Below, piece after piece: positions 1 to 19,860 of a DNA stretch of 19,860 nucleotides. Source of the stretch: a virus (taxonomy: Duplodnaviria; Heunggongvirae; Uroviricota; Caudoviricetes); the IMG/VR virus record IMGVR_UViG_2778261687_000001, positions 1 through 19,860 of that record; one strand, written 5' to 3'. Each line of letters starts with the position of its first letter. Within the stretch, counting starts at the first letter, position 1. The notes beneath the pieces were generated by a model. That model saw nothing but the letters and a program-made list of their open reading frames with translations, made no database searches and had not been told where the DNA came from. The translations under genes and the position numbers were made by a program.

Positions 1-356
1 ACCATGACAGCGTTCTGTACTTCAGGGGCCAGCTTGTCAAAAGTGACGTTCATCGGATCGGATTCAGTCTCAACCGGTACAAAGGAAGCAGACTCCTCAT
101 CCCAGCGGTTTTCCTGCATATATTCAGCATCCCAGGAATCGAGGGCAGGGCGGGGTATACCGGGTTTATCCTCGCAAACAAGAAATTTATAAGCGCAGTC
201 CTGAGCAGCCGGATAATGTTCCAGGAATTGCCAGTGAAATTTTGCGCGGGCGCGACGTTCATCACCGGCTTCAATGGCAGTGGCTACAGCGACTGCACCT
301 TCTTCCTTTATTGCCTGTTCGTCCGGAATGGCGGCGCAAATAAAGACTTTACTCAT
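1..356 (-). CDS. Hypothetical early-left protein, N-terminal 118 aa only (gene runs past the window start); YdfE-like by position
   Basis: Minus-strand ATG at 356-354 with GAGGT Shine-Dalgarno 8 nt upstream; open frame to window edge, translation MSKVFICAAIPDEQAIKEEG... Identity is by synteny only (downstream of the YdfD-like and DicB-like genes). Confidence 0.5.
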   Translation of the reverse strand, partial: MSKVFICAAIPDEQAIKEEGAVAVATAIEAGDERRARAKFHWQFLEHYPAAQDCAYKFLVCEDKPGIPRPALDSWDAEYMQENRWDEESASFVPVETESDPMNVTFDKLAPEVQNAVM

Positions 357-448
357 TTTGTTTTACCTCATTACAGATTTAAGGGTGAACAAATCCCTGC
401 CATTGCTGGCATATAAAAATGAAACCGGATATTTATTACGGTGCTGGT

Positions 449-640
449 TTAAAGCCCTGCCGGGACTTCGTTATTATCCATGCGAATAACTTTATCGACC
501 GGATAACAGTTACCGGGAATTTTCTGTTCCGCTGCGGCAGCCATGCATTCTTTCATTGAGCCGTATACGCCAGTAACCATGTCAACCGGTTCACCGGAAA
601 CAAGAAAAACCGTCAGAACAAGTGCAAATGTGGTATTCAT
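449..640 (-). CDS. ydfD: YdfD-like small membrane (lysis-associated) protein, 63 aa
   Basis: Internal ATG of track ORF 449..694 with AGGA upstream; translation MNTTFALVLTVFLVSGEPVD... has an N-terminal hydrophobic helix; start overlaps the upstream gene stop (ATGA); matches my recollection of Qin YdfD in length and sequence. Confidence 0.6.
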   Translation of the reverse strand: MNTTFALVLTVFLVSGEPVDMVTGVYGSMKECMAAAAEQKIPGNCYPVDKVIRMDNNEVPAGL

Positions 641-825
641 TGCCAGTATCCTTTTTGAGTCGGACGTAAACGGGCCAGCATAGAAAGAATGCAAATTTGA
701 TTTAATAACTCCCGTTCGTGTTTTCTCTTATTAATGGCATCTTCAGTAAATACAGGGTTACTGATTCTGACACCAATTTCAAAACAACCTTCAGACGTAT
801 TAACGTTTGGTAATAACGTTTCCAT
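637..825 (-). CDS. dicB: Cell-division inhibitor DicB-like protein, 62 aa
   Basis: Track ORF translation METLLPNVNTSEGCFEIGVRISNPVFTEDAINKRKHERELLNQICILSMLARLRPTQKGYWQ closely resembles DicB as I recall it (62 aa); sits just downstream of a DicF-like terminator hairpin, as in the Qin dicB operon. Confidence 0.7.
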   Translation of the reverse strand: METLLPNVNTSEGCFEIGVRISNPVFTEDAINKRKHERELLNQICILSMLARLRPTQKGYWQ

Positions 826-1002
826 TATCGCGTCCTCAACAATGAATTTTGTGATGCGGTGCCTGGTGCCTCCAGGTGACGTTAACCAGTTAACAATTAA
901 CGCCGGATACAGGGAAACCCATAAACACCCGATACGGGGGAACTAATCGCTTTTTAACTGTTCCGCGTGCGCTCAGCCGCATTCACCGCATCACAAAATT
1001 CA

Positions 1003-1066
1003 CTTTAAAAAGGGCGGACATCAGCCAGCAATGAAACTGATGCCGCCAAAGGTACAAATCAACATG
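1003..1066 (-). ncRNA. dicF: DicF-like small RNA (3' intrinsic terminator plus upstream UUUGGCGG...AUCAGUUU core)
   Basis: Minus-strand RNA reads ...UUGAUUUGUACCUUUGGCGGCAUCAGUUUCAUUGCUGGCUGAUGUCCGCCCUUUUU; stem GGCGGCAUCAG/CUGAUG-CCGCC followed by U5. It shares the UUUGGCGG, AUCAGUUU and GCCGCCCUUUUU-type blocks with E. coli DicF as I recall it and sits immediately upstream of dicB. Ends are approximate. Confidence 0.4.
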
Positions 1067-1361
1067 GAGTGTTGTAGCGGGGTTGTCACTCAGGCGTATG
1101 GTCAACCTGACAACCCGGTGCTACCAGTGGGGGTAAGGATAACCCCGCCATACTTACCGCCGCGCCATTTCGCGGAGTGCCACAACCGGAAGCGCACGGT
1201 CGAAGATACCGGCGACACGCAACAGAGGGAGAAATGACTTCGCCGTGCGCTTTCGTGTTGTGTGCCTGCTTTTAACCACGTCAGGCGAGGTGGTTCCTGT
1301 CATTCCCCAACGACAAGAAATCTGTATAATCTGGATATCCCCAACGATCCAAGGAAATCAT

Positions 1362-1508
1362 ATGACAGAGCAAAGAGCACAAGCAGGTGGTGGCAATTCG
1401 ACACATAAAACAGTCTGGGATCACATACCAGAGAAAAACATTCGACCAAAACCATCTCCAGCTCCTTCGGAGGAGAGGGGGAACAGCAACAACCAAACAA
1501 GCAGGTGA
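1362..1508 (+). CDS. Possible small leader ORF (48 aa, hydrophilic, low complexity)
   Basis: ATG at 1362 with AAGGAAA Shine-Dalgarno; extended -10 TGTATAAT at about 1322-1331. Composition (MTEQRAQAGGGNSTHK...) is not convincingly protein-like, so this may be an untranslated leader. Confidence 0.25.
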   Translation: MTEQRAQAGGGNSTHKTVWDHIPEKNIRPKPSPAPSEERGNSNNQTSR

Positions 1509-1514
1509 TGATGT

Positions 1515-1961
1515 ATGGACCGGGATGATATTCTTGACAGAATTTTATATGGCTATTTTCTTGAGCAACTATTTTCTGTAGCGACTGGTCGTCTCGATAA
1601 ACTTCTCTCAGTGGTGAGTATTATCCTCGGTTCATCTGTCATTGGCGGATTCATTCCGGAAATTTCTGGCGTTTTTATTGTTGTGATCGCAACCGTCCAA
1701 ACGATTTATGGATTCGGACAAAAGTCAGGTAACGCCATGAGAAAATCCGCAGAATATTTGCAGCTTTTTGATGATGCAGAAAAATATTCTGATTCTGAAT
1801 TGAAAATGCAGTTAAAAATTCTGGAAAAAACGGATGATCATATTTGGTCATCACTTAAAGATATTGCGATCTTAAAAACACAGATCAAAATAGGCGTTTC
1901 CATCGAACAACAAGAGAAGCTGCCCACAAAATCTAAATTGATGCGATTTCTTTGTGGTTAG
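1515..1961 (+). CDS. Two-TM inner-membrane protein, 148 aa; candidate superinfection-exclusion (SieB-like topology) protein
   Basis: Track ORF with AGGTGA Shine-Dalgarno 7 nt upstream; two adjacent hydrophobic helices (about residues 30-67) then an 80-aa charged C-terminal region; opposite strand to the surrounding early-left genes, at the position where Rac carries sieB. Family assignment is topology and synteny only. Confidence 0.55.
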   Translation: MDRDDILDRILYGYFLEQLFSVATGRLDKLLSVVSIILGSSVIGGFIPEISGVFIVVIATVQTIYGFGQKSGNAMRKSAEYLQLFDDAEKYSDSELKMQLKILEKTDDHIWSSLKDIAILKTQIKIGVSIEQQEKLPTKSKLMRFLCG

Positions 1962-2039
1962 GAATATCCAGAATGTTAAAGAGCATGCCGGAGATTTATC
2001 CGTGTCCGGCGCATGTTCTCCACCTCACCCGTGGAGAAC

Positions 2040-2426
2040 TTAATGATTAATTGATATTTTATAGTTGGCTTCAACTTTCCCATCTGAAGTGGGATGCTTT
2101 AAATCACAGGAATTAATGTTGCACTCAGTAAAATGGTTTTTAAGGGGTTCTATTCGAATCCCTTTCTTTTCCATCAACAAACCAAACCCCTTGTTAATGA
2201 TATCCATTAATTCCAGGAAGTATTTTTCAGAGGAATCATGCTTATCAGAGTGCTGCTTCTCTTCGTACAACCCGATAAAGGCACGGCGCACGTTACCGGA
2301 TATATTATCTATGGTTTCTTTTTCTACGGTACTCAGGTCAAGAGTCGCCAATTGAGAACGAACTATATTCGCTGCCATTTCCTGGAAAGGTGTTGGTAAA
2401 TCTTTAAATTCCATCGTTAATCTCAT
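2040..2426 (-). CDS. Hypothetical protein, 128 aa, AT-rich
   Basis: Track ORF; start ATG overlaps the stop of the upstream YdfA-like gene (TGATG); convergent with 1515..1961 and separated from it by two hairpins (1988-2011 and 2014-2035). No family recognised. Confidence 0.55.
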   Translation of the reverse strand: MRLTMEFKDLPTPFQEMAANIVRSQLATLDLSTVEKETIDNISGNVRRAFIGLYEEKQHSDKHDSSEKYFLELMDIINKGFGLLMEKKGIRIEPLKNHFTECNINSCDLKHPTSDGKVEANYKISINH

Positions 2427-2578
2427 CAGTCAGTATTTCTGGATAACCAGCGACGCGCGCCAGCTTCGGTTTTAAACGTTTTGCTTTTGGTATACGTCAT
2501 CGCGGTGAACGTACCGTCCTGGTTGGGAAACACGCCACATACCAGAGATTCGCTGTTGCCAAGATCGATAGTATCCAT
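2426..2578 (-). CDS. Small YdfA/YdaF-like (DUF1391-type) protein, 50 aa
   Basis: Internal ATG at 2578-2576 with GAGGT 4 nt upstream; translation MDTIDLGNSESLVCGVFPNQDGTFTAMTYTKSKTFKTEAGARRWLSRNTD; first gene of the leftward operon next to an operator-like repeat region. Confidence 0.5.
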   Translation of the reverse strand: MDTIDLGNSESLVCGVFPNQDGTFTAMTYTKSKTFKTEAGARRWLSRNTD

Positions 2579-2754
2579 GTTGACCTCATTTCCCCTTAAC
2601 GCCGGGGTAGCGGAACAAAAACCTGCTGCATAGTTAAAGTTGAACCCTGCCGTCATGTTCTTACGCCTCGGGCTGGCTACTTAACCCCTGACCACTGCCT
2701 GGTAACTCGAAGTATTGCCCGGCGTTCTGTGGGGCGGGGTGGGTTGGTAAAACA

Positions 2755-2805
2755 AAGGATGCACTTTAAAAGTTATTATGTCAACACTTATAAAGTTAGT
2801 TTTAT
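2755..2805 (-). promoter_or_regulatory. OL-like operator/promoter region for the leftward early operon
   Basis: Minus strand reads ...TATAAGTGTTGACATAATAACTTTTAAAGTG...: a consensus TTGACA plus AAGTGTTGA and TTTAAAGTG motifs that recur in the repressor-cro intergenic region. No good -10 was identified, so promoter placement is tentative. Confidence 0.3.
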
Positions 2806-2859
2806 GTGTTCAAAAAACGCCTTGATGTGAAGCGGTTCTGCGAAAAGAAGGGGGAGGTA

Positions 2860-3141
2860 TTATCTGGGAAACTGACGTCTGGCGTGTACGATACTTACAA
2901 TTTCAATACTTGAAGCGGCCACACGGTAAAGAATTATATAATTAGGGTGGGCCACAATCTCACGCAAGCCAGGCACTCTGTCGCTTGGTGGATATAAATA
3001 CGGATGCTCAGATAACGGCAGTACGCAAGCTCTTAAGCGCTTCCACAAACGTTCTGCCGCATCTATGTCGAAACGTGCAATATAACTAGTTATATCATCT
3101 AGGTCGGCATCTGCGCTTTCAAGCCATAACACGGGTAACAT
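2860..3141 (-). CDS. RelE/ParE-family type II toxin, 93 aa
   Basis: Track ORF MLPVLWLESADADLDDITSYIARFDIDAAERLW...HARRQFPR; typical size and residue pattern of the ParE/RelE superfamily; lies 3 bp downstream of a small antitoxin-sized gene. Confidence 0.65.
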   Translation of the reverse strand: MLPVLWLESADADLDDITSYIARFDIDAAERLWKRLRACVLPLSEHPYLYPPSDRVPGLREIVAHPNYIILYRVAASSIEIVSIVHARRQFPR

Positions 3142-3144
3142 TTA

Positions 3145-3333
3145 CTACTTGCTCCGTTCCTTGCGTATTTTAGCAAAGCGTTCTGCCATTCTGCGCTCAA
3201 CCTCGTCATGGGGAATTGCTGGGCGCGGATCTGCAAGGCTTGCTGCTACTTTCGCACGCAGCCATTCGTTGTAACTGTTTTCTTGTTCAATGGTTTCAAA
3301 CTCAGAAACCATTGGTGAAAGGGCTGTATTCAT
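3145..3333 (-). CDS. Putative type II antitoxin, 62 aa
   Basis: Internal ATG at 3333-3331 with GAGGT 7 nt upstream; small charged protein (MNTALSPMVSEFETIEQENSYNEWLRAKVAASLADPRPAIPHDEVERRMAERFAKIRKERSK) immediately upstream of the ParE-like toxin and immediately downstream of the repressor gene. Confidence 0.5.
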   Translation of the reverse strand: MNTALSPMVSEFETIEQENSYNEWLRAKVAASLADPRPAIPHDEVERRMAERFAKIRKERSK

Positions 3334-3362
3334 TACATACCTCATCTTATGGATGATATAGA

Positions 3363-3770
3363 TTATGCTCGATGCCCTTTCTGGGCTGCGAGCCACCGTG
3401 CGACAGTGCGATCCATTGACTCTTTTTTGTCTTTCATATCTTTTAACATTTGTTCTTGATCTTCCTCTGGAAATGCTCCGAAAGTTTGAAGCAATTCTCT
3501 TTGTCTGGGACCTATTTTCATTGTATCAGGCACTACGACTTGCTCTTCTTCGCTTGGCGGTAACATAAACCAATACGGAGGAAAGCCCGTCACTTCGGAA
3601 AGCTTATCGAGATTAGCCGTTGATGGGCTTGTGATGCCATGAACCCACTTTTGGACCGATTGTTGGGCAACACCAATCCTGCGGGCTAGTTCTGCCTGCT
3701 TAAGTCCTGTTTTTTCCAGCACCAATTTTATTCGGTACGTGGTTATTTCAAGGGTAGTCATTCGCTTCAT
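3363..3770 (-). CDS. Prophage repressor, DicA/RacR-like HTH-XRE, 135 aa
   Basis: N-terminal HTH (LKQAELARRIGVAQQSVQKWVHG) and a C-terminal region resembling DicA as I recall it (RELLQTFGAFPEEDQEQ...); divergent from the Cro-like gene across operator repeats. Confidence 0.8.
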   Translation of the reverse strand: MKRMTTLEITTYRIKLVLEKTGLKQAELARRIGVAQQSVQKWVHGITSPSTANLDKLSEVTGFPPYWFMLPPSEEEQVVVPDTMKIGPRQRELLQTFGAFPEEDQEQMLKDMKDKKESMDRTVARWLAAQKGHRA

Positions 3771-3877
3771 GCATTCATTTTACATAAAAAAAGTGTAACT
3801 AGTACAAACAGCTTTAAAGTGTTGATTGTGTAACTTTAAAAGTGTATAAATCATGGCAATTCATTGGAGTTAACGAT
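3771..3877. promoter_or_regulatory. OR-like divergent promoter/operator region between repressor and cro-like gene
   Basis: Rightward promoter TTGATT (3822-3827), 17-bp spacer, TATAAA (3845-3850); repeated GTGTAAC and AAGTGT motifs (3791-3799, 3816-3835, 3839-3850); a TAAAAT -10 on the minus strand about 6 nt before the repressor ATG. Confidence 0.5.
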
Positions 3878-4156
3878 ATGCATGAATGTTTAAAAAATAA
3901 AATTCATCAAAAAGGGTTATCCCAAGCAGGTATTGCTCGTTTGATTGGATTACCGCAGCAGGTTGTGTCCCGATGGGCTAATGGGCATCAGATTCCTGCA
4001 TCAAGGGTTTTGCAACTATGCGAGATTATGGAGTGGACGGTTACCCCCCACGAACTTCGTCCTGACATTTACCCCAACCCAACAGACGGGCTGCCTTGTG
4101 GAAATAAGTGTATGGCGAATGAATCACTGGCGGTGAACAATGAAAATCACCCCTGA
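3878..4156 (+). CDS. Cro/YdaS-like HTH regulator, 92 aa
   Basis: ATG at 3878 with GGAG 8 nt upstream; HTH (LSQAGIARLIGLPQQVVSRWANG) and the TPHELRPDIYP motif typical of YdaS-family Cro-like proteins. Confidence 0.7.
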   Translation: MHECLKNKIHQKGLSQAGIARLIGLPQQVVSRWANGHQIPASRVLQLCEIMEWTVTPHELRPDIYPNPTDGLPCGNKCMANESLAVNNENHP

Positions 4157-4661
4157 ACAGGTTTGTGAGGCTCTGGATGCCTGGGTATGCCGACCAGGAA
4201 TGACACAGGAGCAGGCGACGATATTAATCACGGAAGCATTCTGGGCTCTGAAAGAACGCCCGAACATCGATGTTCAACGCGTCACGTTTGATGATGGCGC
4301 GGTTGATCAACGGGCGCTGGGCGTTAACCGGGTGAAGATTTTCGAACGCTGGAAAACTATCGACACCAGGGATAAGCGTGAAAAATTCACGGCGCTGATT
4401 CCGGCAATTATGGAGGCTATCCGGATCAGTGATTTCAGGTTGTATTGTGAAATTACTGACGGAAAAAGCATTACGTACATGATCGCCGGGTTAAACAAAG
4501 AATATGGCGAAGTGGTGGAGTCCGGGCTGCTTTTTGCGGATCCAGCCATTGTGGAGCGTGAAGCTGACGAGCTAATAGAAAAAGCCATAGCTTTCAAGCG
4601 TGCGTATCGTCAGCAATATCAACAAAAAGCCGGATGGAATTATGAGTCTCCTTTTTGCTGA
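4140..4661 (+). CDS. YdaT-family protein (CII-position regulator/toxin-like), 173 aa
   Basis: Track ORF overlapping the cro-like stop; position and size match ydaT-type genes that follow ydaS in Rac-like prophages. Confidence 0.6.
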   Translation: MKITPEQVCEALDAWVCRPGMTQEQATILITEAFWALKERPNIDVQRVTFDDGAVDQRALGVNRVKIFERWKTIDTRDKREKFTALIPAIMEAIRISDFRLYCEITDGKSITYMIAGLNKEYGEVVESGLLFADPAIVEREADELIEKAIAFKRAYRQQYQQKAGWNYESPFC

Positions 4662-5607
4662 ACGCCCGCTGGTTATAAACACGCAGCTGGCGATGAAAAT
4701 TGGTCTGAACGAAGCCATCGTGTTGCAGCAGCTGCATTACTGGTTGAGAGATACCAGTTCCGGCATGGAATGTGATGGTGTTCGCTGGATTTATAACACA
4801 ACTGAACAATGGCTGGAACAGTTCCCGTTCTGGTCAGAGTCAACGTTAAAACGCGCATTTGCAAGTCTGAAAACGCTGGGGCTTTTGCGTTGCGAAAAGC
4901 TCAATAAATCAAAGCGCGATATGACTAATTTCTACACGATCAATTACGAGAGCAAGCTTTTAGATGATGGCAAATTGAGCGAATCCATCAGGTCAAAATG
5001 CGCCGCTCCATCAGGTCAAAATGACACGATGGAAGAGGCCAAAATGACACACCCCATTGGTTCAAAACGACCCAATGTCATCGGGTCAAAATGGCCCGAT
5101 GATCCTACAGAGATTACTACAGAGATTACTACAGAGAATAAAAACACTTCTTGTCCGGAAGCTTCGCAACCGGACGAGGAGACGGCTGAACAGGATTTTT
5201 TAACCCGACATCCTGACGCGGTTGTGTTCAGTGCGAAAAAACGCCAGTGGGGCAGCCAGGAAGATTTGACGTGTGCGCAGTGGATCTGGGGGCGAATCGT
5301 GAGTCTTTACGAACAGGCTGCCAGCGATGATGGCGAGATCACGCGACCGAAAGAACCCAACTGGACCGCATGGGCCAATGACGTGCGCACAATGCGGATG
5401 CTGGATGGCAGAACTCACAGGCAAATTTGCGAAATGTTCAGTCGGGTACAACGGGATCCATTCTGGGTAAAAAACGTCATGAGCCCGTCAAAGCTTCGCG
5501 AAAAATGGGATGAGCTGGTTATTCGTCTGGGACGTTCGCCTGTACAGCGTTGTGTGAATCACATTTCTGAACCGGACACCGAAATTCCGCCGGGATTCAG
5601 GGGGTAA
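4642..5607 (+). CDS. Replication initiator (lambda O-like replisome organiser), about 321 aa
   Basis: N-terminal winged-helix-like region (ERPLVINTQLAMKIGLNEAIVLQQLHYWL); direct DNA repeats (iterons) inside the coding sequence; followed by the DnaC-like loader. Start may instead be GTG at 4600. Confidence 0.75.
   Translation: MSLLFAERPLVINTQLAMKIGLNEAIVLQQLHYWLRDTSSGMECDGVRWIYNTTEQWLEQFPFWSESTLKRAFASLKTLGLLRCEKLNKSKRDMTNFYTINYESKLLDDGKLSESIRSKCAAPSGQNDTMEEAKMTHPIGSKRPNVIGSKWPDDPTEITTEITTENKNTSCPEASQPDEETAEQDFLTRHPDAVVFSAKKRQWGSQEDLTCAQWIWGRIVSLYEQAASDDGEITRPKEPNWTAWANDVRTMRMLDGRTHRQICEMFSRVQRDPFWVKNVMSPSKLREKWDELVIRLGRSPVQRCVNHISEPDTEIPPGFRG
4986..5136. repeat. Origin-like iteron array (CATCAGGTCAAAATG-type repeats, about 22-bp period) followed by tandem 12-bp ACAGAGATTACT repeats
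   Basis: Exact CATCAGGTCAAAATG at 4986-5000 and 5008-5022, variant CATCGGGTCAAAATG at 5078-5092 and degenerate copies between; ACAGAGATTACT tandem at 5107-5136; all inside the O-like gene, as for lambda ori. Confidence 0.55.
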
Positions 5608-5613
5608 CGGGTT

Positions 5614-6360
5614 ATGAAAAATATTGCTGCAGGTGGTGTTCTTGAACGCATCCGTAAGCTGGCCCCGCAGCATGTAACCGCACCGTACCGGACAGTGGAC
5701 GAGTGGAGAGAGTGGCAGCTTGCAGAAGGGCGAAAGCGTAGTGAGGAAATTAACCGCCAGAATCGCCAGATCCGGGTGGAGAAAATTATGAAGCGTTCCG
5801 GTATCCAACTGTTGCACCAGAAGTGTTCGTTTGCGAATTACCTGGTGAAGAACGATGGCCAACGCCACGCGCTGAGCCAGGCAAAATCCATCGCGGAAGA
5901 AATGATGACCGGATGCACAAATTTCGTGTTCAGCGGTAAGCCGGGTACCGGAAAGAATCATCTGGCAGCAGCCATTGGCAACCATCTTCTGGCGAAAGGT
6001 CGCAGCGTGATTGTGGTGACGGTGGCGGATGTGATGCTGGCGTTACACGGCAACTACGACAACAAAAACTCGGGCGAAAAGTTTTTACAGGGGTTGTGTG
6101 AAGTTGACCTGCTTGTCCTGGATGAAATTGGTATGCAGCGGGATACGCGTAACGAACAGGTCACACTGAACCAGATAGTCGATCGCAGAACGGCCTCGAT
6201 GCACAGCGTCGGGATGCTGACGAACCTGAACCATACGGCAATGAATACGCTGCTTGGTGAGCGCGTGATGGACCGCATGACCATGAACGGTGGTCGCTGG
6301 GTGAATTTTAACTGGGAGAGCTGGCGTTCAAATGTCAGTCATTTAAGGGTTGTGAAGTAA
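5614..6360 (+). CDS. DnaC-like helicase loader (IstB-type AAA+ ATPase; lambda P functional analogue)
   Basis: Walker A GKPGTGKNHLAAAIG and Walker B DLLVLDEIG; immediately follows the initiator gene. Confidence 0.85.
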   Translation: MKNIAAGGVLERIRKLAPQHVTAPYRTVDEWREWQLAEGRKRSEEINRQNRQIRVEKIMKRSGIQLLHQKCSFANYLVKNDGQRHALSQAKSIAEEMMTGCTNFVFSGKPGTGKNHLAAAIGNHLLAKGRSVIVVTVADVMLALHGNYDNKNSGEKFLQGLCEVDLLVLDEIGMQRDTRNEQVTLNQIVDRRTASMHSVGMLTNLNHTAMNTLLGERVMDRMTMNGGRWVNFNWESWRSNVSHLRVVK

Positions 6361-6374
6361 TTTCAGGAGGACTC

Positions 6375-6767
6375 ATGGCAAGCGTTTTTACACCTGAACA
6401 GCGGGAAGAACTGAAGGCACGAATTATCGGGCTGGTACACAGGAACAAACGCATGACGATGTCGCAACTGGAGAGTGCAACGGGGGCTGGCTGGCATACG
6501 GTCAGACGTTGTCTTGTGGATGTGGTTGCTTGTGGTGATTTGTACATATCCGGTAAATACGGTGTTTTTGTATCAGAACAGGCGTATCAGGCGTGGTGTA
6601 AAACTCCGAAGAAAGCTGACCCGGCACTGGTCCGGAAGTTACCTGATGGTGAAATCCGTCGCTACGACAGAGACATGAACATAATTTGCCGGGAATGCCG
6701 TAACAGCGAATCAATGCAACGTGTACTGGCGTTCTATCGGGGTAATTTTCAGGAGGTGATGGAGTGA
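6375..6767 (+). CDS. Hypothetical nin-region protein, 130 aa
   Basis: Track ORF with AGGAGG Shine-Dalgarno; no family recognised. Confidence 0.6.
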   Translation: MASVFTPEQREELKARIIGLVHRNKRMTMSQLESATGAGWHTVRRCLVDVVACGDLYISGKYGVFVSEQAYQAWCKTPKKADPALVRKLPDGEIRRYDRDMNIICRECRNSESMQRVLAFYRGNFQEVME

Positions 6768-7060
6768 GGGTGAGGGTTTATATCGCCGGTCCGATGACCG
6801 GGTATAAAAATTTCAACCGTGAGGCGTTCCACAAGGCAGAAGAGGAACTGAAACGGGAGGGGCATACAGTCTTAAATCCGGCAGTACTTCCGGACGGACT
6901 GACTCAGTTGCAGTACATGGATATCTGCATGGCGATGATACGTTGCGTGGATGCGATTTACATGCTGAATGGCTGGCAGCGGTCGGCGGGTGCCAGGGCA
7001 GAACTGGCACTGGCGGAGAAGCTGGGGCATGCGGTTATTTTACAGAAGGCGATGCAGTGA
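6764..7060 (+). CDS. DUF4406-like (nucleoside 2-deoxyribosyltransferase-like fold) protein, 98 aa
   Basis: Translation VRVYIAGPMTGYKNFNREAF...VLNP...YMLNGWQRSAGARAELALA fits the DUF4406 pattern as I know it; GTG start with GGAGG upstream. Confidence 0.6.
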   Translation: MRVRVYIAGPMTGYKNFNREAFHKAEEELKREGHTVLNPAVLPDGLTQLQYMDICMAMIRCVDAIYMLNGWQRSAGARAELALAEKLGHAVILQKAMQ

Positions 7061-7062
7061 AT

Positions 7063-7239
7063 ATGTTCTGGATAATCAAAATTGAGCTGTTTGTTATTGT
7101 ATTCCTGATCAGTGCATTTCTGGCAGCGGCTTTTATTATCTGGGAAAATCCTTTTCGACATATCAGTCCACTGTTTGCAATCAGGGTGTTAATAGCATCG
7201 GTTGTAGTGGTGTGGTTAATGTGTTTTGCATTATTTTAA
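7063..7239 (+). CDS. Small hydrophobic protein, 58 aa (two predicted TM helices)
   Basis: ATG at 7063 just after the upstream stop; strongly hydrophobic translation MFWIIKIELFVIVFLISAFLAAAFIIW...; weak Shine-Dalgarno. Confidence 0.35.
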   Translation: MFWIIKIELFVIVFLISAFLAAAFIIWENPFRHISPLFAIRVLIASVVVVWLMCFALF

Positions 7240-7252
7240 TGGAGTTAATGTT

Positions 7253-15390: not shown

Positions 15391-15405
15391 ACAGGAGAAA
15401 AACGT

Positions 15406-15795
15406 ATGTCTGAACCCTTGTCCGGTTCCGGCACGGCTGCGGCGCTCGGCGGGGCGACGGTATTCGGGCTGTTTACCGGGACGGATTTCGGGATTGTGTT
15501 TGGCGCGTTTGCCGGGGCGTTGTTTGTGGCCACGATGCCACAGGTGATTTCTGTCTGGCGTGTGGCGGCGCATTTTCTGGTGTCGTTCATTGTTGGCGTG
15601 CTGGGGGCGGATGTCCTTGCGTCCTGGCTGGTCGAAAAATTGAATCTCCACAGCACATCTCTCGACGCGCTTTGTGCGGTACTGGTATCGGTGGTGTCGG
15701 TGAAGATTCTCTCATTCATCCACCAGCAGGATATCGCATCGCTGGTATCCGGGCTGTTCTCCCGTCTGCGGGGTGGAGGCGGTAATGTTAAGTAA
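15406..15795 (+). CDS. Putative holin (three predicted TM helices), 129 aa
   Basis: AGGAG 9 nt upstream; three hydrophobic helices; first gene of a cassette ending in the endolysin. Confidence 0.55.
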   Translation: MSEPLSGSGTAAALGGATVFGLFTGTDFGIVFGAFAGALFVATMPQVISVWRVAAHFLVSFIVGVLGADVLASWLVEKLNLHSTSLDALCAVLVSVVSVKILSFIHQQDIASLVSGLFSRLRGGGGNVK

Positions 15796-16063
15796 CCTTC
15801 CCGGATTACTGAATGTGGTGTTAAGCTCGGTTATCGTGCTGACGCTCTTTTTTTATCGTCGCGGTGAGTCGAGATATAAACCGCTGATGTCGTGGCTGGC
15901 CTGGCTGTTGATGCTGCTTTATGCTTTTGCACCGCTTTGTTATCTGTGTGGTCGCTTCCCACCAGGTAACTGGCTGGTTGTCCTGATTAACTTGGTGTTC
16001 TGCGTGCTGGTGATACGAGCACGCGGGAACGTATCAAAAATCCTTGTATTACGAAGGCGCTGA
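15785..16063 (+). CDS. Second lysis-cassette membrane protein (three predicted TM helices), 92 aa
   Basis: ATG at 15785 with GGAGG 5 nt upstream, overlapping the holin 3' end by 11 nt; stop lies 2 nt before the endolysin start. Confidence 0.5.
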   Translation: MLSNLPGLLNVVLSSVIVLTLFFYRRGESRYKPLMSWLAWLLMLLYAFAPLCYLCGRFPPGNWLVVLINLVFCVLVIRARGNVSKILVLRRR

Positions 16064-16064
16064 T

Positions 16065-16610
16065 ATGAAGTCGAAAGATGAAATTTTTGACGAAATTCTG
16101 GGAAAAGAGGGCGGTTACATCAATCATCCGGATGATAAAGGTGGACCGACCAGATGGGGCATTACTGAAAAAGTTGCCCGCGCACACGGTTATCATGGCG
16201 ATATGCGTGACCTGACGCGTGAGCAGGCGCTGGAAATACTCGAGGCGGACTACTGGTACGGACCACGATTCGACCTGGTTGCGAACCTGTCTCCGGATAT
16301 TGCCTCAGAGTTGTGCGATACGGGCGTGAACATGGGGCCAACTGTGGCGTCCAGAATGCTTCAACGCTGGCTGAACGTTTTCAACCTGCGCGGGAAACTC
16401 TATCCGGATATGGATGCTGATGGACGCATCGGGCCGCGTACTCTTAATGCATTACGGGCATATCTGAAAAATCGCAGCAGGGATGGTGAACTGGTACTGG
16501 TGAAAGCCCTGAACTGTACGCAGGGCGAGCGTTATCTGGAGCTGGCAGAGAAACGCGAGGCCAATGAGTCGTTTGTCTATGGCTGGATGAAAGAGCGCGT
16601 GGCTGTGTGA
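16065..16610 (+). CDS. Endolysin, GH108-type N-terminal domain with C-terminal peptidoglycan-binding domain, 181 aa
   Basis: Hallmark EGGYINHPDDKGGPTRWGIT motif of the GH108 family; follows two small membrane proteins. Confidence 0.8.
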   Translation: MKSKDEIFDEILGKEGGYINHPDDKGGPTRWGITEKVARAHGYHGDMRDLTREQALEILEADYWYGPRFDLVANLSPDIASELCDTGVNMGPTVASRMLQRWLNVFNLRGKLYPDMDADGRIGPRTLNALRAYLKNRSRDGELVLVKALNCTQGERYLELAEKREANESFVYGWMKERVAV

Positions 16611-16699
16611 TAGCATTTAAAAATGATCATTATCAATGAGTTAAGTGTATGTTGCGTTTAATTTCTCCTGGGCGTACGCAACCAAAAGGAGAAATACGT

Positions 16700-16906
16700 A
16701 TGAAGTACTATGTTCACACTCTTACAGATAATCAGAACGATCATGAGGTTCATACAGAAACATGTTTTCGACTTCCTGATGCAAACAATCGTAAAGAGCT
16801 TGGAGAGTTTAGCTCATGTGAGCCGGCAGTGAAGGCCGCAAAAAATCTGGGTTACACGAGGGTGAATGGATGTTACTGGTGCTGCAGAGATTGCCATACA
16901 TCCTGA
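16700..16906 (+). CDS. Small Cys-rich protein, 68 aa
   Basis: AAGGAG 8 nt upstream; C-terminal GCYWCCRDCH cluster; followed by a strong terminator. Confidence 0.5.
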   Translation: MKYYVHTLTDNQNDHEVHTETCFRLPDANNRKELGEFSSCEPAVKAAKNLGYTRVNGCYWCCRDCHTS

Positions 16907-16930
16907 CATAAGGTGTGAATAATTCTGACA

Positions 16931-16958
16931 AAGGTCGCTTCGGCGGCCTTTTTTATTA
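16931..16958 (+). terminator. Intrinsic terminator (UUCG tetraloop hairpin plus T-run)
   Basis: AAGGTCGC-TTCG-GCGGCCTT then TTTTTATT. Confidence 0.6.
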
Positions 16959-16985
16959 CTCAAAAACGAAAGAACGGAGGTACGT

Positions 16986-17267
16986 ATGTACGCACTCAAG
17001 AAAATCACGGTAACAGAAGACGGTCGTCATGTTGAGGAAGTGCATGTCCTGGGGGATATGTACCGCCTGGAGTTCTATCCGCGTAACACTCATCTTGCAG
17101 CGAAGATTGAGTATTGCCGGGACGGGAATATTCCGTGCATTCCTGTAGAAAAAGAGGATGAAGCCTACATCATCACACTGAACGGTGACACGGCGCGTTG
17201 TATCTGTCGTGGCGACAGTGAAGCCCGGAATGAAATAGCAAGATGTCGCGCCCATACAGATAAATAA
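16986..17267 (+). CDS. Hypothetical protein, 93 aa
   Basis: GGAGGT Shine-Dalgarno; soluble, Cys-containing; followed by a terminator-like hairpin. Confidence 0.55.
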   Translation: MYALKKITVTEDGRHVEEVHVLGDMYRLEFYPRNTHLAAKIEYCRDGNIPCIPVEKEDEAYIITLNGDTARCICRGDSEARNEIARCRAHTDK

Positions 17268-17273
17268 AAAGCA

Positions 17274-17312
17274 AAAACCCCGGCTGCGGGAACAGTTCGG
17301 GGTTTTCTGTTT
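17274..17312 (+). terminator. Terminator-like hairpin with T-rich tail
   Basis: AAAACCCCG ... CGGGGTTTT followed by CTGTTTC. Confidence 0.45.
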
Positions 17313-17338
17313 CTGACCTTGAGTAAGCAAGGGAGAAC

Positions 17339-17521
17339 ATGGAGAAGTATAAACGAATTCTGTTTAGGTTGACTATGAAAAACGGCCTTGAATTGAAAGC
17401 GCCTGTAACTGATGACATCAGCAGAGCGGTGGCTTTTGCCATTAAGTGGGTGGCTGTCGGTATCGCTGTGTCTCCGATTCTGTATGGGATGGCAAAATTG
17501 ATCATTGCTGTGAAATCGTAA
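17339..17521 (+). CDS. Small protein with C-terminal TM helix, 60 aa
   Basis: GGGAG upstream; hydrophobic C-terminal segment AFAIKWVAVGIAVSPILYGMAKLIIAV. Confidence 0.4.
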   Translation: MEKYKRILFRLTMKNGLELKAPVTDDISRAVAFAIKWVAVGIAVSPILYGMAKLIIAVKS

Positions 17522-17538
17522 GTGGGGCAGGGGTAAAT

Positions 17539-17673
17539 ATGTCAGATAGCATTATAAAACTGGCGCGAATTCTCTGTGTGGCTGTTGGCCTTTCATTTTC
17601 AGCAATGTTGGTTGCCATTTTCATTTCCACCGCCTGGCGAGTATTGAGCTTATCCGGATTGATTGGTGGATAG
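17539..17673 (+). CDS. Small TM peptide, 44 aa
   Basis: ATG at 17539, 17 nt after the previous stop; single hydrophobic helix. Confidence 0.3.
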   Translation: MSDSIIKLARILCVAVGLSFSAMLVAIFISTAWRVLSLSGLIGG

Positions 17674-17677
17674 TGAG

Positions 17678-17860
17678 ATGAAGCGAAAACACTGGACACA
17701 CAGAATGCCGCGAACGGCGGCGAAATGGGCACTGGTAGCGATACTGGTGCCTTTTTTCCTGGTGGGATGCGTCAGCCTGGATAAGGCGCGCCAGCTTTTC
17801 GATACGGCTTCTCAGGTCTGCGAAATTGTCGACGGTGTTCGACAGTGTCTGCAGAGCTGA
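17678..17860 (+). CDS. Small predicted lipoprotein, 60 aa (lipobox LVGC)
   Basis: Basic N-region, hydrophobic core WALVAILVPFFLV, lipobox LVG-C; short Cys-containing mature part. Confidence 0.45.
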   Translation: MKRKHWTHRMPRTAAKWALVAILVPFFLVGCVSLDKARQLFDTASQVCEIVDGVRQCLQS

Positions 17861-18033
17861 TCGCCCGTAAGAGCAGAATATTTCGCTGAAAAATGAAGGA
17901 TGCGCCAGCGTCCAGAAAGCATGAAATTCTGCTGTGTGTGCCAATTTGTCTTATACATTCTGAATCTTGCCGCATCAGGATGAACTTTGAACAACAGCCC
18001 GGGCGGCAAGGGGCATTTTTATCCGGAGGGGAT

Positions 18034-18258
18034 ATGAAGAGATTACTGGTAACCGTAAAGCCCTTTAACGGAACGATTCCATTCAGGGTTTTGCAGCGTG
18101 GACGTGTTCTGGTTAAGGATATCTTCAGTGGTAAATGCACGGAATGTTATTCCCGGACATATGAAGTGGATGCCACGGATGAAGAAATTTCTGTTGAATG
18201 TGATCTTAACGCGAATATGGCGGAGATTGTAACAGCCACGTTGTTACCTGTTTCATGA
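18034..18258 (+). CDS. Hypothetical small protein, 74 aa
   Basis: Internal ATG with GGAGGGG upstream inside track ORF 17893..18258. Confidence 0.4.
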   Translation: MKRLLVTVKPFNGTIPFRVLQRGRVLVKDIFSGKCTECYSRTYEVDATDEEISVECDLNANMAEIVTATLLPVS

Positions 18259-18298
18259 ATGACATAGAATGTCTCCGGGTACCCAAAAGGAGAAAACT

Positions 18299-18514
18299 AT
18301 GTTTGTAGAAAATAACCTGAAGGCCGATCCTGATAATCAGGGATGGGTTCTGGGTTGGGCTGTAGTACGTGACAAACCCTGGCATCTGGTCGGTATTTAT
18401 GCAACGGAGGATGGCGCAAAGTCTAAACGCTCTGAATTGAATGGGGAGTATGAAGTTCGTTATGGTTCCCATCGTTTAGGTAGTGATGATTTTATGTCTG
18501 TCGGACTTAGCTAA
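18299..18514 (+). CDS. Hypothetical small protein, 71 aa
   Basis: AAAAGGAG Shine-Dalgarno; followed by a strong terminator. Confidence 0.5.
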   Translation: MFVENNLKADPDNQGWVLGWAVVRDKPWHLVGIYATEDGAKSKRSELNGEYEVRYGSHRLGSDDFMSVGLS

Positions 18515-18526
18515 CTGGCTGTGATG

Positions 18527-18555
18527 CCTGTTTGTAGCCCCGCAAATGCGGGGCT
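18527..18555 (+). terminator. Intrinsic terminator
   Basis: AGCCCCGC-aaat-GCGGGGCT then TTTTTTAT. Confidence 0.65.
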
Positions 18556-18570
18556 TTTTTATATCTGGAG

Positions 18571-18969
18571 ATGATGATGGAAAAAACAGAAAACAAACCT
18601 GTTGCAATTGGTGCTGATGCTGCTCCGTTTAAGTTTGAGTTGTCTCAACTGGTGGAGATGCGCATCAGTGATGAATGGGGTGAGGTTAAAGCCCGCGCGC
18701 AGTATGCGGATGGCGAAAACCAGTACTTGATCCACTACAAGGCTGCAGATGGTCGCGCCACGACGCAGTGGTTTGGTGAGTCAATGCTGGAAGCAACAGA
18801 AGATGATCGCCATCCGGGCTGTCCGGTATTTGCCGGTATGAAATTACCGGAAGGGGCAGTTGAACTGCAGCCGGGTGAGGTGTTCGTAATGTCAGAAGTC
18901 ATTGATGGTAAACCGCAGTATTCGCGTATTGAAATGAATAGTAAGAGTGCTCGCCTGATTCGTGAGTAA
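18571..18969 (+). CDS. Hypothetical protein, 132 aa
   Basis: GGAG upstream of a triple ATG; soluble acidic protein; a 13-bp stem-loop follows the stop. Confidence 0.6.
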   Translation: MMMEKTENKPVAIGADAAPFKFELSQLVEMRISDEWGEVKARAQYADGENQYLIHYKAADGRATTQWFGESMLEATEDDRHPGCPVFAGMKLPEGAVELQPGEVFVMSEVIDGKPQYSRIEMNSKSARLIRE

Positions 18970-19016
18970 CAGGCATTACAGCAGCCCTTCACTCTAAGGG
19001 GCTGCTGTAATGTGAG

Positions 19017-19054
19017 AAATAAAAAACCGGTCCAGCTACACAGAACCGGCCGGC
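19017..19054 (-). terminator. Minus-strand intrinsic terminator
   Basis: Minus strand reads CCGGTTCTGTGTAGCTGGACCGG then TTTTTTATTTC. Confidence 0.45.
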
Positions 19055-19140
19055 GAAGACCGCCAATACCACCCATGCATTGATGCAACATACTAATGAC
19101 AATAGCCGCTATTGATGTAAATGCAATGTTATGCATCGAC

Positions 19141-19184
19141 GAAAATAAAAAACCGGCAGGGGAAATCCATTGAAGACTTGCCGG
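19141..19184 (-). terminator. Minus-strand intrinsic terminator (second copy of the AAATAAAAAACCGG-flanked hairpin)
   Basis: Minus strand reads CCGGCAAG...CTGCCGG then TTTTTTATTTTC. Confidence 0.45.
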
Positions 19185-19329
19185 TGGCAAAAGTTGCCAA
19201 TGCTTTTATAACCGTAGTCACAGAGTTACGAAGTGCAACACCGAATGCTGCTGGTATATGGATGAATGGCGTTTCAATGATTTTCATCAATTTATTCATC
19301 AGCAATGGTGATAATCACTCTCATTTGTG

Positions 19330-19545
19330 CGGGTCCTTCCGGTGGGGGGGCCTGCCACGGGGCGGCAGCGTCGCGGAAAACGGCTAGTTTTTGCATTTTC
19401 ATGGTGGCGGCAGCATGTGATGTAATTTATTGATAATTAAAAGCTATTTCCATTTTCACCTGTACAATATTTTTTTCTCCCTGTCATTAGACCAGTTTGC
19501 AATTCATTGAAATATATAAATAAACCTGATTTTCACCTGCCAGAT
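19330..19545. other. Lambda-like cos region: cosN-like core (about 19356-19376) and two ATTTTCACCTG direct repeats (19452-19462, 19529-19539) as candidate terS-binding sites
   Basis: GGGTCCTTCCGGTG ... ACGGGGCGGCAGCGTCGCGG resembles the lambda right end and cohesive-end region (ACGGGTCCTTTCCGGTG ... GGGCGGCGACCTCGCGGG) as I recall it; it lies about 200 bp upstream of the terS start, as cosN does relative to Nu1. Confidence 0.5.
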
Positions 19546-19555
19546 GGAGTTGCTT

Positions 19556-19860
19556 ATGTCAAATGTGAGCGGGATCGGTGATGCTTATTACTGGAGTGTT
19601 TTTAAAATCGCCGAGGCCTTTGGGCTTCACCGGGACACAGTAAAAAAACGGCTCCTCGCGGCCAACACTCCTGTGGCTGCGACTGTCAGGGGGAACCCCG
19701 TTTACGCCCTGCAGCATGTCGGGCCTGCCCTGTTTAGTGTGAAGCATGAGGCAGCAGACTCTGTTCATGATCCATCCCGTATGGGTAAGCGGCTCACCAG
19801 AACCGTATTGATATTTACTGAGAGCTCAGATCAACTTTCCAGGGCAACAGATCGCGTACC
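19556..19860 (+). CDS. Terminase small subunit (Nu1-like), N-terminal 101 aa; gene runs past the window end
   Basis: GGAG 7 nt upstream; open to the window edge; N-terminal HTH-like segment (YYWSVFKIAEAFGLHRDTVKKRL) and GNPVYAL motif parallel lambda Nu1; sits just downstream of the cos-like sequence. Confidence 0.5.
   Translation, partial: MSNVSGIGDAYYWSVFKIAEAFGLHRDTVKKRLLAANTPVAATVRGNPVYALQHVGPALFSVKHEAADSVHDPSRMGKRLTRTVLIFTESSDQLSRATDRV

Follow-up and report, generated by a model that had tools for sequence, protein, structure and literature searches.

The toxin-antitoxin (TA) pair that follows the prophage repressor in the 19,860-nucleotide stretch of DNA analyzed here (IMG/VR record IMGVR_UViG_2778261687_000001, positions 1 to 19,860; hereafter the window) belongs, on the grounds of sequence comparison, to a variant member of the published paaR-paaA-parE module of E. 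coli lambdoid prophages, a module whose layout is already known. Such a three-component paaR-paaA-parE system was reportedly published by Hallez et al. in 2010 (Mol Microbiol 76:719). We consider it very probable that the locus is a paaR-paaA-parE TA system in a lambdoid immunity region, heteroimmune and co-transcribed with its repressor, and that it most likely serves as an addiction module. The best described relative is the paaR2-paaA2-parE2 locus of CP-933P (Sp12) in E. coli O157:H7, for which a lambda-like regulation was reported in mBio (Jurenas et al., 2021; PMC8630535).

The three genes lie in the same orientation on the minus strand, as read from the list of open reading frames and the raw sequence: the repressor at 3770..3363, the antitoxin at 3333..3145 and the toxin at 3141..2860. 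The initial annotation had placed a RelE/ParE-type pair directly downstream of, and co-oriented with, a prophage repressor, and this arrangement is seen in the window, with the span given for it (2860-3770) coinciding exactly with the ends of the three genes; the 3-bp gap between antitoxin and toxin is likewise as described, while the gap between repressor and antitoxin measures 29 nt rather than 30 bp. The promoter and terminator scan detected neither a sigma-70-like promoter nor a terminator-like hairpin in either gap, and the 29-nt spacer (3334..3362, minus strand) carries a GAGG Shine-Dalgarno sequence at 3343..3340. Both TA reading frames are full length, and dN/dS against three other alleles is 0.03–0.19 with dS up to 0.8 (0.04–0.09 for parE), indicating purifying selection. 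Family matches, identities to PDB entries and low dN/dS together establish that the three genes are real and rule out chance open reading frames.

The toxin gene, parE (2860..3141, minus strand; 93 amino acids; GGAG about 10 nt before the ATG), matches the ParE_toxin family PF05016 at 5.8e-17 (62.5 bits against a cutoff of 23), with residues 4-91 aligned to model positions 1-89 of 89. Over 92 amino acids the toxin shares 89% identity with the crystallized ParE2 of E. coli O157:H7 (5CW7_B, 5CZF_C; E=4e-55), in agreement with the RelE/ParE fold supposed at the outset; weak PDB matches were 3KXE, 6X0A and 5CEG. Judged by its family scores, the toxin belongs to the ParE side of the superfamily and not to the RelE side. 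The identity of a RelE/StbE mRNA interferase was ruled out by the TIGR02385 score of 22.1 bits, under the cutoff of 27.9. Structures involving PaaA2 and ParE2 of CP-933P are available as 3ZBE, 5CW7, 5CZE and 5CZF. For ParE2, toxicity by SOS induction or DNA damage and neutralization by the cognate antitoxin have been published (PMC8630535), and ParE2 was reported neither to bind GyrA59 nor to inhibit gyrase (PMC10886550).

The antitoxin family, which had been left open, is PaaA2 by its match to PF21217 (1.1e-20; 73.8 bits against a cutoff of 27) and NF050103 (85.7 bits against a cutoff of 50), so that the family searches place both members of the pair, the toxin through PF05016 and the antitoxin through PF21217/NF050103. 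The gene (3145..3333, minus strand) encodes 62 amino acids, has GAGG 6 nt before its ATG and ends in TAG at 3147..3145; its product is 95% identical to PaaA2 of PDB 3ZBE_A (also present in 5CW7). No HTH, RHH or AbrB match was obtained for it in family HMM searches, and hence no DNA-binding domain. The RelB label that databases attach to this protein is incorrect. ClpAP and ClpXP degrade PaaA2, which binds ParE in a tight complex (PMC8630535).

A perfect stem of 10 bp closing a 7-nt loop (inverted repeat I21) lies inside paaA at +20 to +46 (3288..3314, minus strand), with a folding energy of −13.5 kcal/mol (z = −3.45). The stem is kept in the E. coli alleles and partly kept in 71 distant homologs, where 6.6 of 10 positions pair in register, compared with about 3.4 of 10 in slid registers, and the pairing is backed by a synonymous-site association (Fisher p = 0.009). 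It is possible, and we suggest this tentatively, that this conserved hairpin with its synonymous-site covariation may exert a post-transcriptional control, undescribed so far, over the antitoxin:toxin ratio.

The repressor gene (3363..3770, minus strand; stop TAA at 3365..3363) encodes a CI analog of the DicA/PaaR family with 135 amino acids; for the same gene in a near-identical genome, RefSeq starts at ATG 3761 and gives 132 amino acids. Its HTH_3 domain covers residues 14-68 (50.5 bits against a cutoff of 23; 2.2e-13), and residues 81-135 form a PaaR2/DicA-like C-terminal domain. These last 55 residues share 51% identity with PaaR2 (E=2e-17), whereas the N-terminal DNA-binding part is unrelated to PaaR2 in sequence; a third repressor type (locus L088) likewise joins the conserved C-terminus to a differing N-terminus. 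The protein matches phrog_5736, a family that also contains PaaR2, at 3.6e-18. It aligns over its full length to the DicA model NF007257, but with 57.8 bits, below the cutoff of 101, and therefore is not a DicA ortholog. The PDB search recovered only the 434 repressor HTH and thus offered no solved structure of a PaaR protein, and the PADLOC matches were to generic HTH only. Family HMM searches found no S24 peptidase domain in the 135-residue protein, which rules out the LexA/CI class of SOS-cleavable repressors.

The repressor gene occupies the position of cI, divergent from a cro-like gene (3878..4156, plus strand) whose 92-residue product matches YdaS (PF15943, 5.3e-10), HTH_3 and phrog_35 and would be the Cro analog. 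It is followed by a putative CII analog of 173 amino acids (4140..4661, plus strand) with matches to the YdaT family PF06254 and to phrog_163, 'CII-like transcriptional activator' (1.9e-40). Identity to the CP-933P counterparts is 29% for YdaS and, over the N-terminus, 35% for YdaT. Database names of the type 'YdaS/YdaT toxin' denote Cro-like and CII-like regulators, and in CP-933P the two proteins function as analogs of Cro and CII (PMC8630535). Further to the right of the module are O/P-like replication genes, and to its left DUF1391, dicB, an exonuclease gene, xis and int.

Between the repressor and the cro-like gene lies an OR-like operator region (3785..3850), in which 3809-3821 and 3832-3844 are palindromes and 3789-3797 a half-site, and beyond parE an OL-like region (2756..2798) with two near-palindromes of the CACTTTAAAAGTT type, at 2762-2774 and 2785-2797, 23 bp apart. 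A 31-nt inverted copy (repeat I1, in addition to repeats D4 and I11) pairs 2759-2789 with 3817-3847 and thus flanks the module. With up to three mismatches allowed, the operator motif has 15 matches in the window, compared with 6.6 expected, and four sites show two or fewer mismatches on both strands, every one of them at OL or OR. The CACTTTAAAAGTG-type palindromes on either side of the module are predicted to be the operators of this very repressor. The OL-like region is kept in two loci with the same repressor type (L083 and L085) and replaced in L084, in which a PaaR2-type repressor takes the place of cI; likewise, the OR-like region is conserved in the alignment with L083 and L085, while PaaR2-type loci differ. 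Operators hence vary together with the repressor type across the compared loci.

Candidate promoters are placed accordingly within these regions. For PRM, TAAAAT at 3777..3782 (minus strand) is read from the sequence as a −10 element 6 nt upstream of ATG 3770, with a poor −35 (GTACTA/TTGTAC), a geometry that can be compared with GATAAT-6 nt-ATG in CP-933P, and by this analogy the repressor mRNA is predicted to be leaderless and to start from a PRM-like promoter. The candidate rightward PR combines TTGATT (3822-3827), a 17-nt spacer and TATAAA (3845-3850), and the candidate leftward PL combines TTGACA (2784..2779), a 17-nt spacer and CATCCT (2761..2756), overlapped by the OL palindromes. All three were read by hand and none was called by the consensus promoter scan, since the PR −10 lacks the required final T, the PRM −35 is poor and the PL −10 is poor. 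The terminator scan gave a terminator-like hairpin with a T-run (2808..2834, minus strand) 26 nt after the parE stop, in the position of lambda t_imm. Its stability in the window is low (−6.9 kcal/mol, z = −1.3); in L083, L084 and L085 a hairpin with a U-tract occurs at the same position with different sequences and energies of −12.7 to −19.4 kcal/mol. The YdaT operator of CP-933P, TTGATT-N6-AATCAA, is absent from the immunity region, and its sole match in the window, at 12289, is at chance level; this absence is uninformative because of the low identity between the two YdaT proteins. At the Rfam gathering thresholds a tRNA was the sole match, with no DicF or other regulatory RNA.

The paaR2-paaA2-parE2 genes of CP-933P are reported to form an operon in which PaaR2, which also lacks an S24 autocleavage domain, acts like CI; transcription of paaR2 starts at the A of its ATG, giving a leaderless mRNA from PRM933P, and the regulation is bistable (PMC8630535). 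The functional part of the initial annotation, with the pair transcribed from the repressor maintenance promoter, made in the lysogen and acting in addiction, corresponds to what experiments have established for this close homolog. The window shares with CP-933P the gene order with short gaps, the ParE and PaaA proteins at the identities given above, the placing of the module with OL/PL on one side and OR on the other, in divergent orientation to ydaS-ydaT and beside O/P, the homologous repressor C-terminus within a common PHROG and without S24 in either protein, and the spacing of −10, 6 nt and ATG. It differs in having a canonical HTH_3 at the N-terminus of its repressor and operators of the CACTTTAAAAGTG type where CP-933P has the GTTTAGTAA type; in addition, the Cro- and CII-like partners have diverged, and the spacer between repressor and paaA is 29 nt instead of 20 nt. 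At the DNA level, and apart from flanking sequence beyond the immunity core, homology to CP-933P is confined to a TA island at 2866-3333, the island ending 6 nt inside the 3′ end of parE on one side and exactly at the paaA start codon (3333) on the other. Therefore, no conserved cassette promoter travelled along with the island. We read the locus as heteroimmune relative to CP-933P, i.e., as having a different immunity specificity, and because the repressor's DNA-binding domain, the operator sequences and the Cro/CII partners all differ, regulatory details may not transfer from one locus to the other.

The likeness to lambda rexAB that had been proposed holds for position but not for homology. 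As in lambda cI-rexA-rexB, the accessory genes come right downstream of the repressor on what is here a predicted PRM transcript, a terminator separates them from OL/PL, and a leaderless repressor mRNA and expression in the lysogen would be common to both. However, the pair has no sequence or family relation to RexA or RexB, which constitute a sensor and membrane-channel exclusion system and not a type II TA pair, and Pfam Rex returned no match; lambda CI, unlike the repressor here, has a LexA-like cleavage domain. With the DicA-DicC immunity region of Qin in E. coli K-12, the window shares the full-length alignment of its repressor to the DicA model. The leftward neighbors on the K-12 Qin map are of the same content (ydfA/DUF1391, ydfB, ydfC and dicB), and no TA pair is known to lie between dicA and ydfA there. 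Compared with canonical parDE systems (RK2, Vibrio cholerae parDE2, Caulobacter parDE1), the ParE fold, PF05016 and an upstream antitoxin gene are shared, whereas the antitoxin here has no RHH domain, is not ParD and leaves regulation to a separate repressor, and O157 ParE2, as noted, is reported not to inhibit gyrase (PMC10886550).

The closest genome, RM11911, carries TA genes that are 100% identical within a 1.2-kb locus that is 99.8% identical, in a prophage adjoining ompW that contains int, xis, replication, lysis, terminase and portal genes. Of 5426 complete E. coli genomes, 632 contain the cassette, and it also occurs in the deposited genome of phage Evi. In E. coli prophages it stands behind at least three types of DicA/PaaR-family repressor, and in two loci (L084 and L087) it is preceded by two repressor genes in tandem, an arrangement suggestive of an intermediate stage of immunity replacement. 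In a search for PaaR1/PaaA1/ParE1 of CP-933M, the divergent TA type of L083 was absent from the listed O157:H7 genomes. In the L083/L088 type, the C-terminus of PaaA and the N-terminus of ParE are swapped. Among 80 loci from other Proteobacteria, a PaaA-like antitoxin lies directly upstream of 69 of 71 ParE homologs, none of the 80 has a PaaR-like or HTH regulator upstream of paaA-parE, and the open reading frames beside the cassette are unrelated (e.g., MutS, IGPS, DksA). Thus, the cassette can exist without the third gene.

For the allele in the window we infer transcription and function, carrying over from CP-933P the operon, the leaderless start, repression, toxicity, Clp lability and stabilization. 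The repressor is predicted to bind the CACTTTAAAAGTG-type palindromes at OR (3785-3850) and OL (2756-2798), which would shut both the rightward promoter of the YdaS- and YdaT-like genes and the leftward early promoter. The TA pair is probably transcribed together with the repressor gene; a weak, leaderless PRM-like promoter would give a single repressor-paaA-parE mRNA ending at the hairpin after parE, and PaaA co-produced with ParE in the lysogen would sequester it in a tight complex. If the immunity region were lost or replaced, the labile PaaA (a substrate of ClpAP and ClpXP in the homolog) would disappear and the longer-lived ParE would be freed, leading to nucleoid damage, SOS induction and cell death or arrest. 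The pair would in this way be an addiction module that favors the persistence of the prophage and, in particular, of the immunity region.

Several type II TA systems act in phage defense, and a module of this kind might serve as a lysogen-expressed abortive-infection system like rexAB, in which infection frees ParE or depletes PaaA and the cell dies before progeny are made. Such a role is compatible with addiction, and the pair fits it by position, since like rexAB it lies after the repressor gene and before OL/PL within the predicted repressor transcript; the persistence of the cassette in combination with three or more repressor types would likewise suit a moron that benefits the host. Nevertheless, we regard it as unlikely, given that the TA proteins have no RexA/RexB homology, that neither toxin nor antitoxin matched any of 5027 PADLOC defense models, that our literature search on the paaR-paaA-parE system found no anti-phage phenotype, and that the phenotype published for CP-933P, where the locus is addictive and stabilizes a mini-F plasmid, is post-segregational killing (PMC8630535).

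The absence of a sigma-70-like promoter from the 29-nt gap bears on another reading, namely that paaA-parE is an autonomous two-gene cassette with its own promoter and autoregulation that came to neighbor the repressor and is expressed independently of PRM and the repressor. The loci from other Proteobacteria without the third gene would agree with this, as would the partial promoter repression exerted by the PaaA-ParE complex alone, although PaaR is required for full repression (PMC4803016), and the finding that TA transcription occurs in both immunity states of CP-933P (PMC8630535). But in addition to the empty gap, the CP-933P homology stops at the paaA start codon with no promoter carried, PaaA is devoid of a DNA-binding domain, and the homologous genes are reported as an operon with paaR2, so that we think this reading quite improbable. 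It is scarcely credible that the pair has lost its function and is decaying within a cryptic prophage. CP-933P is a cryptic prophage, and in single cells no activity of ParE2 was seen in either of the two transcriptional states at steady state, the authors leaving its role open (PMC8630535); against decay stand the full-length reading frames and the low dN/dS at dS up to 0.8, the occurrence in 632 E. coli genomes and phage Evi, and the gene complement, given above, of the RM11911 host prophage. An addiction module co-transcribed with the repressor is accordingly the reading that we prefer.

The finding itself is of small weight, as both the architecture and the lambda-like regulation were already published in 2010 and 2021, and it corrects database labels (PaaA instead of RelB, and regulators in place of YdaS/YdaT 'toxins'). 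It makes a modest addition in that one PaaA-ParE cassette stands behind several repressors of differing immunity specificity that have the C-terminal domain alone in common, while outside enterobacterial prophages the cassette lacks such a regulator. In a published hypothesis, the TA pair has a policing role over recombination within the immunity region, with death of those recombinants from which the pair is lost (Jurenas et al., 2021; PMC8630535). Because of the edges of the homology island, the three or more repressor types and the tandem repressors in L084 and L087, paaA-parE may be read as a separate unit that is retained while immunity is exchanged around it, which would provide natural-history evidence for the policing hypothesis, separately from any role of the paaA hairpin, although we hold this reading only as a tentative one. 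The pattern is what would be expected if selection keeps the cassette in the immunity region through recombination, and natural alleles, some with swapped interaction surfaces, are available for testing the policing hypothesis.

On the minus strand, a helix-turn-helix repressor gene (3770..3363, 135 aa) is followed by an antitoxin ORF (3333..3145, 62 aa) and a toxin ORF (3141..2860, 93 aa), as read from the ORF list and the raw sequence. The spacers are 29 nt between repressor and antitoxin and 3 nt between antitoxin and toxin, so that the tight same-strand packing proposed in the initial annotation holds, with gaps essentially as it gave. Both downstream genes have a Shine-Dalgarno sequence (GAGG for the antitoxin, GGAG for the toxin), and a consensus scan detected nothing resembling a promoter or terminator in either gap. 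The same annotation placed a RelE/ParE-type pair behind the repressor, and this is borne out by family matches. The toxin scores 62.5 bits against Pfam ParE_toxin (PF05016; cutoff 23), falls under the cutoff of the RelE/StbE subfamily model, and is 89% identical across 92 residues to ParE2 of E. coli O157:H7, for which crystal structures are available (5CW7, 5CZE, and 5CZF). The antitoxin, whose family could not previously be placed, matches PaaA2 (PF21217 and NCBIfam NF050103) and is 95% identical to PaaA2 (PDB 3ZBE); family searches found no DNA-binding domain in it. Both toxin-antitoxin (TA) genes have dN/dS values of 0.03–0.19 relative to three other alleles, indicating strong purifying selection, and these values rule out a decayed pair.

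The pair therefore belongs to the three-component paaR-paaA-parE system, which was first reported from O157:H7 (Hallez et al., 2010). In the cryptic lambdoid prophage CP-933P, paaR2-paaA2-parE2 sits inside the immunity region, where PaaR2 is a functional analog of CI and competes with the Cro-like YdaS for operators between divergent promoters, as well as at a PL-like promoter beyond the far end of the TA genes, while YdaT behaves as a CII analog (Jurenas et al., 2021; PMC8630535). The paaR2 transcript begins at the A of its ATG and is therefore leaderless, as is that of cI. The region is bistable, and the locus stabilizes a mini-F plasmid via post-segregational killing. PaaA2 is proteolyzed by ClpAP and ClpXP, and overexpressed ParE2 induces SOS (PMC8630535).

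The surroundings of the window module share the architecture of CP-933P. Divergent from the repressor are YdaS-like (3878-4156, plus strand) and YdaT-like (4140-4661, plus strand) genes, identified by Pfam and PHROG matches, with O/P-like replication genes further rightward, and DUF1391, dicB, and an exonuclease to the left of the module. The regulators themselves are diverged, with YdaS and YdaT of CP-933P being only 29 and 35% identical to the window proteins. Homology between PaaR2 and the window repressor is limited to the C-terminal 55 residues (51% identity, E = 2e-17), the window N-terminus being a canonical HTH_3 domain. Both proteins fall in phrog_5736 and match the DicA model over its C-terminal portion. 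Neither carries an S24 peptidase domain. Based on these comparisons, the predicted immunity specificity of the module is unlike that of CP-933P. Database names still call the genes at 3878-4661 toxins (PF15943 "YdaS_toxin," PF06254 "YdaT_toxin," and RefSeq "toxin YdaT family protein"), whereas both Jurenas et al. (2021; PMC8630535) and the paper on the structure of YdaT argued for a Cro-like and a CII-like regulator rather than a TA pair; the PHROGs label for the YdaT family is already CII-like activator.

Past the end of parE, a 31-nt stretch (2759-2789) repeats, in inverted orientation, a stretch of the repressor-ydaS interval (3817-3847). Near-palindromes (CACTTTAAAAGTG type), 23 bp apart, occur on the parE side (2762-2774 and 2785-2797) and in the repressor-ydaS interval (3809-3821 and 3832-3844); in the whole window, exactly these four sites match on both strands with no more than two mismatches. 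These candidate operators are kept at the two comparison loci with a window-type repressor (L083 and L085), whereas CP-933P and prophage L084, with a PaaR2-type repressor in the cI position, have GTTTAG-type sequences instead. The predicted operators thus co-vary with repressor type across loci. Reading by hand, we found a candidate PR (3822-3850; TTGATT, 17 nt, TATAAA), a candidate PL (2784..2756; TTGACA, 17 nt, CATCCT), and a candidate PRM whose -10 hexamer, TAAAAT, ends 6 nt ahead of the ATG at 3770; a consensus promoter scan called none of the three. The same PRM geometry is seen in CP-933P (GATAAT, 6 nt, ATG), where the start site was mapped experimentally (PMC8630535). RefSeq starts the equivalent repressor gene of a near-identical genome at the ATG at 3761 (132 aa), while the ATG at 3770 (MKRM...) is kept in L083 and L085. 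Since the window shares its geometry with the experimentally leaderless paaR2, 3770 is suggested as the true start, if that geometry holds. A weak hairpin with a T-run (2834..2808, minus strand; -6.9 kcal/mol) lies 26 nt past the parE stop, where lambda has t_imm; three other alleles have stronger hairpins of different sequence at this position.

Taken together, the best-supported mechanism is the one published for CP-933P, transferred by analogy to a heteroimmune member. The repressor would keep PR and PL shut, while a PRM-like promoter would yield repressor, PaaA, and ParE together; if the region were lost or replaced, stable ParE would remain without labile PaaA, and the cell would be killed or arrested. 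Expression of the TA genes from an autonomous promoter is unlikely, because the repressor-paaA gap is merely 29 nt and homology to CP-933P stops at the paaA ATG. The position behind the repressor might also suit a Rex-like anti-phage role; however, the TA proteins lack homology to Rex, PADLOC gives no match for them, and an anti-phage phenotype was not found in published work on the system, making such a role improbable. The transferred CP-933P mechanism agrees with the initial proposal of PRM co-transcription, lysogen expression, addiction, and a cI-rexAB analogy, which is supported and amounts in effect to a rediscovery of the work of Jurenas et al. The module represents a different immunity type within a system already characterized by experiment, and is not new in kind.

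Elsewhere in the window, the interval from the PL-side genes to dicB contains an oppositely oriented 148-aa ORF (1515-1961, plus strand). Its translation has a long hydrophobic stretch and it may be a membrane protein; it matches phrog_6315 (function unknown) and, weakly, a SLATT-like PADLOC model (RTasSLATT, E = 0.002), with no match in a Pfam search. It could be a lysogen-expressed moron. A tRNA-Gly gene (anticodon UCC; 14856-14928, plus strand) is in the prophage late region, upstream of the lysis genes.

Positions +20 to +46 of the paaA reading frame (3288-3314, minus strand) can form a hairpin whose 10-bp stem is perfect and whose loop is 7 nt, with a folding energy of -13.5 kcal/mol (z = -3.45). 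Across 59 distinct distant-homolog sequences, 6.6 of the 10 positions pair in register; in slid registers the figure is about 3.4. The paired Val and Glu codons show a synonymous-site association between their third positions (Fisher p = 0.009) that control Glu codons lack, but these sequences are not phylogenetically independent, and GC drift may contribute. The conserved hairpin is one of two modest leads.

The closest genome, E. coli RM11911, has TA genes 100% identical to those of the window and a 1.2-kb locus 99.8% identical, in a prophage adjoining ompW with int, xis, lysis, terminase, and portal genes. Identity is 98% over 365-7694 and 94% over 13113-18860, but 7695-13112 matches only in short or 85%-identical pieces, and therefore the window derives from a related but distinct prophage. 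DNA homology to CP-933P forms an island (2866-3333) from 6 nt inside the parE 3' end to exactly the paaA start codon, with non-homologous flanks (OL/terminator on one side; repressor, OR, ydaS, and ydaT on the other). Of 5426 complete E. coli genomes, 632 contain the TA DNA, usually at ~90.5% identity (the O157:H7 value); the full-length window repressor allele occurs in about 36 genomes. PaaR2-type repressors occur at locus L089 and in Escherichia phage Evi, window-type repressors in L083 and L085, and a third type (166 aa), with the conserved C-terminus in common, in O104:H4 (L088). The phage Evi record (LR597642.1; L086:3167-3445) has paaA and a regulator gene of PaaR2 size (372 nt), with no gene annotated in the stretch beside paaA. 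Similarity to window parE at the DNA level runs on through that stretch, so that parE appears to have been missed.

Two E. coli prophages (L084:2419-3282 and L087:1936-2788) carry tandem regulators before paaA-parE. The first is PaaR2-type (123 aa, 74% identical to PaaR2) and adjoins a PaaR2-type ydaS, and the second is a window-type HTH gene (153 aa, 66–69% identical to the window repressor); the OL region of L084 is of the PaaR2 type. To judge from sequence, this tandem resembles a stage in immunity replacement at which the TA cassette was retained. In a TA variant (L083:1997-2469 and L088:1428-1909), PaaA residues 1-44 are kept with an unrelated C-terminus, and the N-terminal ~40 residues of ParE (about a third) have diverged while the remainder is conserved, which looks like a block swap across the antitoxin 3' end and toxin 5' end. 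This type was found in 77 of the 5426 genomes, O157:H7 being absent among the matches listed.

ParE2-like toxins (48–76% identity) are encoded at 80 further loci in Alpha-, Beta-, and Gammaproteobacteria. The ORF upstream of ParE is PaaA-like in 69 of 71 cases (62-64 aa, without a DNA-binding domain), and none of these 80 loci has a PaaR-like or other regulator gene upstream of paaA-parE, the next genes upstream being unrelated (MutS, IGPS, DksA, and others). Therefore, paaA-parE is a widespread two-gene cassette, which in enterobacterial lambdoid prophages sits on the predicted repressor transcript. Its persistence through immunity swaps is the second modest lead, and bears on the recombination-policing hypothesis of Jurenas et al.
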